From Saccostrea cucullata (Eukaryota), in NCBI RefSeq assembly GCF_032062105.1, contig NW_026926296.1, forward strand, positions 186,001 to 250,000: DNA of 64,000 nt, in the 5' to 3' direction. Below are positions 23,489 to 43,393 of the stretch, piece after piece. The notes beneath the pieces were generated by a model. It saw only the letters and a list, made by a program, of their open reading frames with translations, did not search any database and was not told the DNA's origin. Position 1 is the first letter of the stretch; each line of letters starts with the position of its first letter. Made by a program: the position numbers and the translations under genes.

Positions 23489-24619
23489 TAACATATATGT
23501 AATATGTTTTACAATTTTTGTTGTATGTTCTTTCTGACAGTTGTATTTTTTTGTATTTTGCATATATTGTTCAATGTCTGATTTATAGTGTCCATTAATT
23601 GTTTTCAATATAATGTTTAATGTTTGACTGTCTCATCTGCACACACAACTGTTTGTCTGTCCACCACAACCCTCACCTCGCCTCATCTCAGCAGCTCTGT
23701 CCAGACGTAGATGTAAAGTGAGTGGTTTTGTTTTCAATATTTAGGGCCCGCTATGATAATGATCAGTTTGTCCGTCTGTCTGATATGGTTTCCATCCCCT
23801 TGGCTTGATCTGGTTTAAACTGCATGCAGTTACCTTGAACCAGTTGTCTAAGTAAAAGGTCAAAGTAAAAAACACATCTGCATGTAACCCTAATCTGGAG
23901 TGATTTCCTTCATTTTAGCCCTTTCTGGCTTATGCTTCATCTACATATAGTGCCAAGTGGTGTAGGATGTGCAGTAACGAACAGCTTCTAGATCAGAAGT
24001 CAAGGTCTTGTCATTTTTATCACAGTGAGCACATTTTCCTTCATTTTAGCCCTATCTGGCTTATACTTCACCTATATATAGTGCCAAGTGGTAAAGGATG
24101 TGCAGTAATGAACAGCTTCTAGATCAGAAGTCAAGGTCTTGTCATATTCATTATAATGAGCATATTTCTCTCCCCTTTGTAGAGTCCTTGAAGCAAAGGT
24201 CAGTTGTAAACAACTTCTCTGTTTACCTTTTTAAATCTCACAGTGTTTATGGTGGGATATGATTTTTATCCAACAAGGTTTGTGATATTTTTGTACCAGC
24301 TCATATTGACTCGATAACCCATAGAATTCCAATTTGTTTGATGGTAACTTTAGCTTTAATAAACCAAGTTTTTTGTCAGGTTTCAAGGTTACAGCAGACA
24401 TCCATATGAAATTATTGTCATGGTCATTATTTTTTGTTCCCTTGAGCTTCATCTCGTACAACTCCCAGGAGTGCCAGTAGATTAAAGGTGCAAGTCAATG
24501 TCAAGGTCATTGTCAGTGCCTTCCCATCCTGATGCCCTTTAGTTAGAGCGAGGCCCTTTGAGATGGGCATCAACTCACTGATGTTTAGTTGTATATACAA
24601 CATCATGATGTTGGGGTTC

Positions 24620-24760
24620 NNNNNNNNNNNNNNNNNNNNNNNNNNNNNNNNNNNNNNNNNNNNNNNNNNNNNNNNNNNNNNNNNNNNNNNNNNNNNNNNN
24701 NNNNNNNNNNNNNNNNNNNNNNNNNNNNNNNNNNNNNNNNNNNNNNNNNNNNNNNNNNNN
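24620..24760. other. Assembly gap (N run)
   Basis: Run of n characters. Confidence 1.
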
Positions 24761-24924
24761 CTTTGGTACCTCAAATATTGATATGGAGCTATTGCAGATT
24801 ATTCCACTTCATTATTTATTTTTCCATGATTAAAGTAATTATAATTATTTTGTAATTGTTAAATACATCGGTTTCAAGTTTGAGATTACAAGGTTGAACG
24901 GTTTAGATGTATGTATATTACATT

Positions 24925-26585
24925 TATTTAATCTTGCAGAAGCAGGCACAAGCAGCATTAAATCTTACAGAAGCAGTGACAAGTGGTATTTAATCTTACA
25001 GTTGCAAAGACAAGCCGTTTTTTATCTTACAGATGCAAGAACAAGTAGTAGTAAATCTTACAGAGGCAGGGGCAAGCAATTTTGAGTCTTGCAGAAGCAG
25101 GGACAATCATTTTTTTTCTTACAGAAGCATGGACGAGAGTAGCAAACCTTACAGAAACAGTGCCAAGCAGTATTTAATCTTGCAGGAGCAGAGACAAGCA
25201 GTTTTTTTTATCTTACAGATGCAGGGGCAACCAGTACTTCATCTTTCAGAAGCAGGGACACACAGTTTTTTCCCCTTACAGATGCAGGAACAAGCAGAAT
25301 TAATCCAATATGAAAGAAGTACAAACAGCACCCAATCCTACAGAAGCAGGGAACAAGCAGCTTTTTATTTTGCAGATGCCAGGACAAGCAGTATTTAATC
25401 TTGCAGAAGCAGGGACATGCAATTTTTTATTTTACAGATTCACAGACACAGTTTTATATCATACAGAAGCGGGGACATGCAGTTCTAAGCCAGTCTTAGA
25501 GTGCCAAGCAGTATTTATCTTACAGATGCAGGGACAACCAGTATTTAATCTTTCAGAAGCAGGGACACAAGGTTTTTTTCCTTACAGATCCAGGTACAAG
25601 CAGAAGCCAATTTTAAAGAAGGACAAACAGCAGACAATCCTACAGAAGCAGGGAACAAGCAGTACTTTATCTTACAGAAGCAGGGACAAGCAGTACTTTA
25701 TCTTACAGAAGCAGGGACAAGCAGTACTTTATCTTACAGAAGCAGGGACAAGCAGTACTTTATCTTACAGAAGCAGGGGGAAGCAGTATTTAATTTTACA
25801 GATGCAGGGACAAGCAGTATTTTTAAATCTTATGGAAGCAGGGACAAGCAGTACCCAACCCTACAGAAGCAGAGAGAAGCAGTATTTAATTTTACAGATG
25901 CAGGGACAAGCAGTATTTTTAAATCTTATGGAAGCAGGGACAAGCAGTACCAAACCCTACAGAAGCAGAGACAAGCAGTGCCCAATTCTACAGAAGCAGA
26001 GGCAAACAGTGCCCAAATCCTACAGAAGCAGAGACAAGCAGTGCCCAATCCTATAGAAGCTAAGACAAGTTGCACCCAACCCTAAAAAAGCTAAGACAAA
26101 CAGTGCACAATCCTACAGAAGCAGAGACAAACAGTGCCCAATTCTACAGAAGCAGAGACAAACAGTGCCCGATCTTACAGAAGCAGAGACAAGCAACACC
26201 CAGTTGTAAAGAAGCAGAGACAAGCAGCACCCAATCCTATAGAAGCTAAGACAAGTCGCACCCAACCCTAAAAAAGCTGAGACAAACAGTGCACAATCCT
26301 ACAGAAGCAGAGACAAACAGTGCCCAATTCTACAGAAGCAGAGACAAGCAGTGCCCAATCTTACAGAAGCAGAGACAAGCCGTGCCCAATCTTACAGAAG
26401 CAGAGACAAGCAGTGCCCAATCTTACAGAAGCAGAGACAAGCAGTGCCTAATCTTACAGAAGCAGAGACAATCAACACTCAACCCTATAGAAGCAGAGAC
26501 AAACAGTGCCCAATCCTACAGAAGCAGAGACAAGAATTTTTAAGCACCCAATCCTATAGAAGAAGACAAGCAGTGCCCAATCCTA
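24925..26585. repeat. 31-bp minisatellite (CTTACAGAAGCAGGGACAAGCAGTATTTAAT / ...GTGCCCAAT), about 50 copies
   Basis: Period of 31 measured at 25671/25702 and 26361/26392. The ORFs over it are frame-rotating artefacts. Confidence 0.95.
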
Positions 26586-40553: not shown

Positions 40554-40737
40554 CACTGGCGGATTTTGAGGGGGGCCCGGGGGGCCCGGGCCCCCCCTTT
40601 TGTGTCCAAAAAAGTACATAATATTTGATAAATCAATGTATTTTTGGTGTTGCTGTAGGCTCTTACCCTGACCTAAAATGGTCCTGACCTAAAATGGTCG
40701 GGCCCCCCCCTTTTCAAAATTTCTGGATCCGCCACTG
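40554..40737. mobile_element. Short MITE (hAT-like CAGTGGCGGAT termini)
   Basis: CACTGGCGGAT...ATCCGCCACTG with an apparent 5-bp TSD ATTCC. Confidence 0.75.
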
Positions 40738-41829
40738 ATTCCTAAGTGTTATTCTTAGTTAATCCAATTAGGACACACATTAGAACTTTTGACTCTCTAT
40801 ATTAACAGAATGATGGTGAGGCAAGCTTTGATCTTGTGGCAGAGAACACATTTAACACTCTATAGGAGGATCCAGAGAACAGAGATCGAAAACAGCCATC
40901 CATGGAAGAAAGGGTAAGATACAGACAATTTGTGCTAAATCCATTGCTTGTGCTTTTCCATATATGATTATGATTGATACCTTTTGATGTTAAATCTCTG
41001 TTTTAAAGAAACAGTGACAACAAGACCCTTATACTATCAAAGGTCTAGAAGATTACATCACCTACCAGCAAGAGACCAAGAGATGGACACCAGAAATGGC
41101 TACAGTGAGGAGTACACTGCCATGATACAGGGTGTCCATTATGCCAACAGACATTAAAGTCAAAGTGGTAAGAAACAAACAGTAATTGTGTAATATTTTG
41201 GATGTATGTTTTCTGTTCTCTCTCTAATGAGAACACATAATGACTCTAAACTCTCTATGTTCACAGAATAATGGTTTGGTAAGTCTTGACTGCAGTCTCC
41301 CACTCTCTGGGTTAGGAAGAGATACCAGCTAAAGGAGTACTGACAGCCAGAATTGACTTTGGCCTGCAGGAGAAATAAGAAGTAAGATCCACTTCTTGCG
41401 TTCTGTCAATTTATATCCTTATTTCTCAGTTCTCCATACCTTTACTACCTGATCTGTATATATATTCGTCATTAACAGACAAGTTAATTTCTTTATATTC
41501 TTTGATTACAGAGAGTTAGGCTAGCCTGGATCTATAAGTGTTCAAGAGCATTCTTGTTTCAACTGGAGTCTCAAGAAAGTGATGAACTTTTGCATATCAT
41601 AATTAAAAGTAAGATATAACAAATATTTTTTTTTTTTCTGTTTGAAATTTTATTTTACATCGCCATTAGTTATAAACCTTCCTTTGCTCTTTGTTAACAG
41701 ATGGAGAGTTGGACCAGCCTTCTACACCAGTTATAGAAGAACCTGTAGGACAGAAAATTCCAGATGAAAGACTTGACCAGAACCTAAGAAGGTAAGATAC
41801 AGTTTTTACTCCATATTTAAACTATTTCA

Positions 41830-41950
41830 GAAGGTCACCTGAGTCCATGCTCAAAATTTCTAAGTAGGTACTCTGAGTTCATACTTAAACATTCTCGTTA
41901 GGTCACCTGAGTCCATATTCAAACATTCTAAGTAGGTCACATGAGTCTTC
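41830..41950. repeat. 34-bp tandem repeat, about 3.5 copies
   Basis: AGGTCACCTGAGTCCAT-type units at 41832, 41866, 41900, 41934. Confidence 0.8.
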
Positions 41951-43393
41951 AATAATTTAAGACATCAAATTCATATCACATAATTGCTACATTTGTTTAT
42001 AATACTAAAAGTTTTTATGTTTTATGAGTATGATCATTGTTTTTTTTCCCTTAATCCTATCATAATGTTGGGATGTGAATTGATAAAAAATTCTCAACAT
42101 AATATACCATGGTACATATTTTGCTGCTATTTCTCCCAATTGAATCTGTTGGTACTGCAGTTGAACTTTGGTATCTCAAATACAATTGATTATGTTGAAG
42201 TAATCTGGAAGTCCTGACAACTTATTCTTTAAGTATTTTACCCTCAACATCTCAAAAAATCAAATATCTTGAAGTTTTTCCTTGCTCCCATCAAGTTTGA
42301 GATAACGAGATTTTACTGTATTTGTAACTGGGAAGATAAAAAACTCTTAGTGATTATGATTGGTTGTTTTATACAGGAGGAAGAGAAGAATACCAGACTG
42401 ACAGGACACGGTGGAAGGAATATCGCTGAAGGATGGACTGTGTGAAAAATATTGACATAGGGACATTATTCATCTGGAACTTACATATTTATGTGTAAAT
42501 GTGAGTGTGTTATGTTTGTATGTGTTTATGAGTTTATATGGTTCATTGTAAATTTTGCTTTTTGGTAAGCCTCTTAATGGTATGCTAGCCCTTACAGTTT
42601 CATATTTTGTTGATACACTGTTAAATAATATTTACCTGTCCATGTCTCTGTAATAGCTATATTAATAATTCAGAACAGTCACTGTGAAACTGAGAATTTT
42701 GAGGATACCTTTTGATGCACGTTTCACAGTTTGGGAGGGGAATTAGATGGGGGGTTGATAGTCATTACCCCTTAATAATTCAGTCCCAATGACACCTCCT
42801 TTAGGGATCCTTCTGCAATAACTGCTTGATCCTTGTCTGGATCACATTACTTAATAAGGCCTAAGATTAAGAGATATTTTCATTTGATGTTGCATGGAAC
42901 AATGTGTGTCAAAGGTTAAGTCTGTGTTACCGTGACCTTCAGTCAAATATCTGAATGTTGTATTGGAATTTTATCATTGGTAATTTTAGTAAGGGTCAGG
43001 ATTTTCTGTCTTTTTTCATTTAAACATTCAGTCAATGTTATTTGATACTAATAAGGGTACTTTAGAGGTTGTATTTTTGTATGACTGAAAGCTAAATAAG
43101 GCATAAAATTACAGTATTTCTGTGATTAGGTGTAGGCATATAAATAACTGGTTTTTAAACTCTATGCCAATTCCCATTCTAACATCTCTTCCATGCAGTC
43201 ATATATTAGATGTACACAATGGGTGCACACAGTTTTTTTTTAAACTATGCCTCGATTCTGCATCACTTCTCTGAGAATATCATTTGTTTTCATTTGCTCT
43301 GTCATTGTGCTGTTTTGTGTTTATTTAACAGAGCATTATCATCATATTTCTTAAATGTCAATTTCCACAGTGGAAATTGTGTGTATTTTATTT

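Follow-up and report, generated by a model that had tools for sequence, protein, structure and literature searches.

Multi-exon long intergenic non-coding RNAs (lincRNAs) are described as being under splice-related constraint (PMC4245815). Here, we describe a comparable predicted exon chain on the plus strand of a 64,000-nucleotide (nt) stretch of the oyster Saccostrea cucullata (contig NW_026926296.1, positions 186,001 to 250,000; called the window below and numbered from its first letter). Like these lincRNAs, the chain has constrained splice sites, neutral exon cores, and no reading frame. Unlike them, it consists of tandem exon-intron duplications, occurs at many loci, and has a coding gene as well as covarying RNA structures in its flanks. 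A second related arrangement is the SNURF-SNRPN/SNHG14 host, in which a coding region is followed by a long tandem run of non-coding exons acting as a carrier (PMC11608373). The present locus has the same order of parts but differs in four respects: Rfam detected no intronic small nucleolar RNA (snoRNA), introns do not exceed exons in conservation, the payload is located in the terminal segment, and the family is dispersed rather than confined to one locus. Judged from its sequence, the likely role of the chain is that of a spliced carrier for an RNA that would pair with, and control, the messages of its own gene family. Literature searches (Saccostrea with PIWI-interacting RNA (piRNA) or with genome or long non-coding RNA (lncRNA), mollusc piRNA clusters, kissing loops with lncRNA), whose coverage was incomplete, returned no description of this family.

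Splice sites and reading frame of the exon chain

A first-pass annotation of the window had proposed a plus-strand chain of at least 23 exons that keeps its splice sites but not its frame. Our exon list, partly placed by conservation of boundaries, agrees with this count: 23 exons were delimited between 26,726 and the final acceptor (42,377), in addition to two conserved micro-exons upstream. The word GGTAAG was biased to the plus strand along the chain (plus versus minus: 11/1 in 26,600-33,000 and 4/0 in 40,700-42,500), compared with a background of 5/4 for the leftmost 23 kb, 0/2 for the rightmost 21 kb, and 0/1 for a 7.8-kb insertion within one intron. The exons are purine-rich, as had been noted (61% purine, 17.9 GAAGAA-type hexamers per kb), whereas the short introns contain 40% T and 0.4 such hexamers per kb.

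Over 15 paralogous loci, 129 of 143 donors and 142 of 157 acceptors were kept (about 0.90); one copy, C806, was excluded from the pooled counts as a likely haplotig. Because repeats alone can generate donor arrays, a decoy control was needed. Motif-matched donor-like decoys were kept in 453/837 cases on the plus and 630/974 on the minus strand, and acceptor-like decoys in 276/452 and 283/474 (i.e. 0.54-0.65). For the twelve A/B exons alone, the values were 77/87 (AG) and 79/85 (GT), using the revised acceptors of A5 and A6 given below. At the ends of 89 A exons, the donor G was present in 86 and the T in 88. A GTAAG-rich minus-strand stretch of contig C23005 was considered as a further chain and rejected, as it proved to be a 95-nt tandem repeat.

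The exon letters were not retained to the same degree. Identity across copies was 77.3% in exon interiors and 78.2% in introns. Three-base periodicity was absent from the chain exons (p = 0.93; coding-exon control, p = 0.021), there was no bias towards in-frame indels (31 of 94 exon-length differences were multiples of three), and no coding paralogue of the chain was found among the copies examined. When joined, the exons (2,787 nt) contain 45-55 stops per frame, with a longest stop-free run of 72 codons. Kept splice sites, missing periodicity and in-frame bias, and sister chains that are closed as well make a recently disabled gene unlikely. The splice sites are selectively retained, the frame is not. 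The first-pass annotation had left open whether coding capacity was lost or had never existed; exons without any coding sign fit better with never having coded.

The chain is made of tandem exon-intron repeats. The six A/B doublets proposed earlier were recovered, with two corrections: the acceptor of A5 is probably at 32,728 (32,718 being an alternative), and that of A6 is weak (AG kept in 4/7 copies). The 20-nt unit of the A exons was confirmed, and A3 has a weakened internal donor near 31,535. B2, B3, and B4 do have a stop as their fourth triplet, as described, but its phase is arbitrary, the preceding A exons measuring 110, 268, and 245 nt. Alignment of 65 units revealed no conserved C/D or H/ACA box pair. 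A Smaug-type element in the A exon (a GGATAC/GTATCC hairpin with a CNGGN loop) was tried as a candidate and rejected, since its key loop bases were kept no better than their neighbours (66-78 of ~85).

Two further proposals fared less well. The interval 23640..42480 is not the whole unit, which is larger on both sides. Of the idea of a functional spliced lncRNA in place of a dead pseudogene, only the second half stood: a dead gene is unlikely, but a stand-alone lncRNA with functional exons is not established, because conservation in exon interiors does not exceed that in introns, some copies have large insertions within exons, and the conserved payload sits beyond that interval (two stem-loops and a coding gene upstream, three hairpins downstream).

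Stem-loops and hairpins with complementary loop cores

The two stem-loops, E1 and E2 (~73 nt, two per unit), stand just behind the stop codon of a 213-amino-acid (aa) gene, and the three hairpins, H1-H3 (~145 nt, three per unit), in the segment after the chain (Table 1). H1, E2, E1, and H3 are the top conserved non-coding blocks, compared with a median of 78%. The consensus stem of E had 98.6% of cells paired and 29 double changes, and that of H 97.4% and 13 double changes; for each, none of 500 shuffles was as good. In 25 copies, H folded at -40 to -54 kcal/mol on the plus strand versus -17 to -32 kcal/mol on the minus strand, its stability on the plus strand only being due to many G-U pairs. 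In the stems of both elements, it was only on the plus strand that changes from A-U to G-U were tolerated, a pattern pointing to single-stranded RNA. Rfam reported nothing at gathering score in the 15 paralogous loci; its matches in the window were weak and microRNA (miRNA)-like, and none fell on the chain, E, or H. Other hairpins of the tail (42,410, 44,600, 48,870, 51,750, and 53,820) lacked consistent stability from copy to copy.

The 10-nt loop cores of E and H are exact reverse complements of each other, and for E1 with H1 or H3 the match extends to 12 nt. The cores are the most conserved columns of either element (99.6% in H and 98.3% in E, compared with 73% and 82% for the remaining loop columns). 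E2 has stem letters unlike those of E1 but an identical loop core. In the consensus structures, both cores lie in loops of supported stems. Among 644 conserved 12-mers across the unit, there were two reverse-complement pairs, both of E1 with H, while two controls gave 0 and 0. At the 10-nt level, 11 pairs were found: seven between E and H, two of E2 with a local site at 15,897, and two joining 42,583 to 52,872. Of 2,464 windows, E1 and E2 were the top partners of the H1 and H3 loops, with E1 best for H3. The arms of H had no conserved complement in the unit. Core variants were single changes only, which either keep a wobble or break the pair; since columns in the tally of 61 E loops were preset by the search pattern, core invariance was taken from the other comparisons.

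Across the genome, the E motif had 30 matches (36 with a looser pattern), all on contigs with the coding exon, and a control had 0. The H motif had 38, some of them at loci without a chain in the retrieved flank. At loci G000:C17400 and C12760, the H-containing segment is tandemly amplified (five and four copies, respectively).

Some further complementary words were observed: (i) 15,897-15,907 is a local complement of E2; (ii) 16,966-16,979 is a wobble-paired third target; (iii) 23,638-23,646 is a partial E-like word before the 23.7-kb micro-exon; and (iv) 42,583-42,593 and 52,872-52,882 form an invariant 11-nt complementary pair enclosing H1-H3. The latter half of this pair is also kept in loci where the former was not found.

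The dispersed unit, its coding gene and its relatives

The chain occupies the middle of a ~50-kb unit (window ~5,600-55,200) with copies on at least 12 other contigs of the S. cucullata assembly, at 70-85% identity. After removal of insertions, the retrieved copies were collinear with the window over this range. With 30,940-32,560 as query, an own-genome search gave at least 109 matches, with 12 other contigs bearing long matches and at least seven more bearing weaker ones (lower bounds, from 40 scored candidates). As C806, C12140, and C10404 are probable haplotigs of the window, and C13130 of C566, contig counts exceed the true number of loci. The left homology edge lies ~40-60 nt upstream of 5,656 (11 copies), with a (CT)n tract just before it in other copies; the donor GT at 5,810 was kept in 9/9 copies. 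The right edge is ragged and fades near 55,100-55,300. No terminal repeat, terminal inverted repeat, or target-site duplication was seen at the unit ends, the right one possibly being masked by later insertions, and the unit contains no transposase.

The upstream gene was intact in all 12 copies having both coding exons (product 211-223 aa). Across these 12, the ratio of nonsynonymous to synonymous divergence (dN/dS) was 0.45, with an excess of third-position changes; the count excludes C12837 (rearranged) and C19598, in both of which exon 2 was not found, C20157 (lacking the start codon and with a truncated exon 3), and loci that have no gene. Coding identity among copies (92-94%) was far above that of exon chain and introns, and the dS of 0.105, compared with roughly 22% divergence of the non-coding parts, suggests gene conversion or extra constraint on the nucleotides. 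For the 213-aa protein, no relative was found in Pfam, PDB, or Atlas. Its structural model (predicted local distance difference test score 51) is mostly disordered except for a C-terminal helix (185-209). Named homologues are confined to S. cucullata and S. echinata. They include RefSeq records called 'magnetosome-associated protein MamJ-like' or uncharacterized (XP_062602254.1, XP_061173697.1, and others), which are proteins of this gene family; those of S. cucullata have 64-93% identity. The MamJ-like names are automatic labels on low-complexity sequence, and the E and H elements lie outside these records.

Several observations concern the link between gene and chain. In copy G000:C3370, RefSeq model XP_062598103.1 joins a weak donor within the coding exon to the 31-nt minisatellite. 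AATAAA words after E2 were moderately kept (6/8, 5/9, and 6/9 copies) and would allow a short message. The conserved donor at 23,718 is preceded by a possible acceptor and may close either a micro-exon or a first exon; the segment 23,650-23,800 showed no fold (z = +1.8). In both subfamilies of the family (see below), a 31-33-nt minisatellite rich in acceptor-like TTACAG words lies downstream of E, and it may act as a splice-acceptor array or as a sink for splicing factors.

Wider searches, in which 150 of 184 candidates were scored, gave ~80 genome matches for the N-terminal coding exon and, by protein, a second subfamily of 17 loci with ~40% protein identity. The same E loop core stands on unrelated stems in the second subfamily, where several loci have 7-12 copies of it; a far longer acceptor-like minisatellite of 8-18 kb (carried by loci L143-L145, L148-L150, and L153-L155) comes after E. 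As E occurs there with neither H nor a chain in the flanks examined, it is older and wider than H. Altogether, the superfamily comprises the ~80 N-terminal exon matches and more than 110 E-type stem-loops. In addition, non-coding exon chains on G000:C23005, C8302, C5082, and C17488 form an older sister family with modules of three to four exons and no gene, E, or H nearby; the sister chains of C23005 and C8302 have at least 40 exon-like units each and are closed in all frames.

Table 1. Features of the window (kept: present in the stated number of copies).
Feature	Coordinates	Strand	Details
Unit start and predicted first exon	5656..5809	+	E-box-like conserved motif, CACGTG at 5,659; donor at 5,810
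Start-codon coding exon, basic N-terminal motif	9279..9351	+	94% identity to paralogues; acceptor kept 12/12
Main coding exon through stop codon	14193..14762	+	213-aa Pro/Glu-rich protein
Stem-loop E1	15084..15156	+	loop core 15,120-15,129; 93% identity in 12 copies; covarying stem
Stem-loop E2	16190..16262	+	loop core 16,227-16,236; 95% identity in 13 copies
Window-specific insertion, terminal inverted repeats	20511..23490		paralogues join 20,510 directly to 23,490; outside family unit
Micro-exon or first-exon end	23692..23717	+	donor GTGAGT at 23,718; near-invariant in 11 copies, GTAAGT in 12th
Candidate 16-nt micro-exon	24183..24198	+	acceptor 6/8, donor 8/8; AG lost in some copies
31-nt minisatellite, 52 units	24925..26534	+	40 acceptor-like YAG words, no GTAAG
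Chain exons 1-10	26726..30769	+	A1 27,818-27,966; B1 28,055-28,157; duplicated exon at 28,816 and 29,780
A2; B2; A3; B3	30,981-31,090; 31,198-31,297; 31,433-31,700; 31,800-31,901	+	
A4; B4; A5	32,080-32,324; 32,416-32,533; 32,728-32,917	+	
7.8 kb of nested repeats in A5-B5 intron	32945..40735		missing here in paralogues; tandem arrays
B5; A6; B6; two further exons	40,809-40,913; ~41,073-41,167; 41,267-41,381; 41,512-41,608, 41,701-41,791	+	
Predicted long terminal exon	42377..55200	+	acceptor AG 7/7
Hairpin H1	43394..43536	+	loop core 43,451-43,460; 96% identity; z -7.76 (+), -3.04 (-)
Decayed non-LTR (long terminal repeat) retrotransposon, antisense insertion	44770..48320	-	RVT_1 E 1.8e-7
Hairpin H2	48546..48691	+	one loop-core substitution; z -6.04
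Hairpin H3	49852..49995	+	loop core 49,907-49,916; z -4.49; 93% identity

Other elements were noted around these features. On the minus strand, an intronless gene at 402-2,183 encodes a 593-aa protein with a B-box and NHL repeats (TRIM-like), head to head with the family promoter; it is absent from the flanks of other copies. The decayed non-LTR retrotransposon was found antisense in four unit copies (the window, G000:C2365, C12837, and C968) at no fewer than three distinct sites, and an insertion preference is possible. At 53,955-54,885 lies a high-copy insertion of ~930 nt, which has an inverted repeat inside it and is present in at least 40 places at ~90% identity. Locus L123 (G000:C22841) has open frames resembling reverse transcriptase and tyrosine recombinase, which we take to be probably a DIRS-type element.

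Proposed loop pairing, alternatives and comparable systems

We propose, with belief and doubt about equally balanced, that the chain is a spliced non-coding spacer delivering H loops that would pair with E loops. Transcription of chain and H would run along the plus strand and yield either a long alternative form of the gene or an RNA starting near 23.6 kb. Repeated splicing itself would matter, for example by helping the polymerase to continue through AT-rich DNA or by depositing exon-junction complexes; with splicing needed as a process, exon number and letters could drift freely. H loops would then form loop-to-loop pairs with E loops in cis. They would probably do so in trans as well, on those family members with E but without a nearby H, and this pairing would determine how stable the family's mRNAs are, how they are translated, or whether they cluster.

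A number of findings speak against this proposal. The copies are related and some are haplotigs, so that the conservation counts are counts of cells, not of independent events. Copy C21028 has insertions of 10 kb and 2.5 kb within chain exons, and in C2365 and C12837, retrotransposons have inserted into or at chain exons. No E, H, or coding exon was found in the 50-90 kb examined around the sister chains G000:C23005, C8302, and C17488; a chain can thus exist without this payload. In the second subfamily, neither H nor a chain was present in ~45 kb downstream at three loci with long flanks, where any E-H pairing would need to act in trans, and 5-6 of 30 E loops have G-to-A changes that break end pairs. 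The E and H cores are nearly invariant and no compensatory E-H change was seen. The H core is partly paired locally in single-sequence folds, and the top partner of H2 is a repeat window, not E. Finally, the end of the coding exon did not match the 23.7-kb segment clearly better than shuffles.

A wider version of the proposal is offered tentatively. The whole lineage-restricted superfamily might be under antisense-like loop-to-loop control, with the spliced non-coding extension of one subfamily delivering multivalent hairpins that pair in trans with stem-loops of all members. The other subfamily would have amplified its target loops and, at some loci, altered them, either in an arms race between selfish element and suppressor or as part of an RNA-scaffolded granule.

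Among the alternatives, we consider it rather unlikely that the chain serves, in spliced form, to host small-RNA precursors, in which each H would be cropped and cut twice to give a loop-derived guide (5′ A/U) targeting E loops via positions 2-11. Pairing does begin one base after a variable A/T position in H, opposite an E base that varies as well, like an unpaired first guide base; this position is 44 nt (2 × 22) from a plausible cropping site in 19/25 copies, although that site was picked afterwards. Conservation of the H upper arms (97%) and the existence of loci with the tail only or with amplified H (C17400, C12760, and C19212) would also suit a precursor. The match, however, sits in the loop and not in an arm, and the loop core is more conserved than the arms. 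With 44 consensus pairs, the H stem exceeds the ~35 bp of a typical primary miRNA, and H has no Rfam match. G-U-forming changes affect the would-be seed match in 5/61 E loops, and a covarying stem around a miRNA site, together with its amplification, would be unusual. In addition, one source reports that molluscs have no pathway for endogenous small interfering RNAs (siRNAs) (PMC12479628).

Also unlikely, and ranked after the small-RNA host, is a set of independent functions: the chain would be a splice-only lncRNA or a piRNA precursor, whereas E (CA-rich) and H (GU-rich) would be separate protein sites that owe their complementarity to a shared origin. Such independence would accommodate the sister chains of at least 40 exons without E or H, the amplification of E where no H is near, and the antisense orientation of all retrotransposon copies found in these loci. 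Splice-only constraint is, moreover, common in lincRNAs (PMC4245815), and binding of hnRNP L to CA-rich sites in 3′ untranslated regions (UTRs) protects from decay (PMC10692906). It does not readily explain why the ten invariant columns coincide on both partners, including the non-repetitive CCG/CGG end, and the wobble-paired third site at 16,966-16,979 and the local competitor at 15,897 fit pairing.

It is improbable that the 50-kb unit is a giant non-autonomous DNA element with the E/H cores as inverted protein-binding sites on DNA. Its dispersed copies with unrelated flanks, the fairly sharp left boundary, the introns, whose retention indicates spread through DNA, and the ~80 related N-terminal exons agree with such an element; the ragged right end, the lack of any terminal inverted repeat or target-site duplication seen, the missing transposase, and the plus-strand-only G-U tolerance of the stems do not. 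A disabled coding repeat gene with splice sites not yet decayed is scarcely credible: its purine-rich exons and tandem doublets look like those of repeat proteins, but periodicity (p = 0.93) and in-frame length differences (31/94) are lacking, conservation of the splice sites exceeds that of neutral dinucleotides at 22% divergence, and the older sister chains are closed as well.

The locus offers a natural many-copy test of splicing conservation in non-coding RNA, with dozens of exon-intron units, a built-in coding control, and decoys. Another prediction from it is that, in an animal gene family, hairpins of two types would make an exact 10-base RNA-RNA contact. Loop-loop antisense regulation is familiar from plasmids; should the contact act in trans, a large uncharacterised oyster gene family would be governed by an antisense loop system of the plasmid type.

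Three described systems share parts of the proposed pairing. As in the Drosophila Nmy/Tmy hairpin RNAs that silence the Dox family (PMC10292708, PMC10317233), long hairpins are tied to a fast-expanding, lineage-restricted gene family. Unlike there, the H arms have no conserved complement in the gene and the loop alone matches, in a phylum for which the siRNA pathway is reported absent (PMC12479628). The long-range intronic pairing over 30 kb in ATE1 (PMC7797038) resembles the present locus in having conserved complementary elements, here 28-35 kb apart, and local competitors. It differs in that here both partners lie in hairpin loops, no mutually exclusive exons were found, and E also occurs where no partner is near. 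Finally, like the kissing loop in the oskar 3′UTR (PMC11567897), E and H are AU/GU-rich stem-loops with short loops able to pair between RNAs. Whereas oskar has one self-complementary loop of 6 nt, a length that the E-H complementarity exceeds, the pairing predicted here would involve two hairpin types with a non-palindromic match of 10-12 nt and several copies of each.

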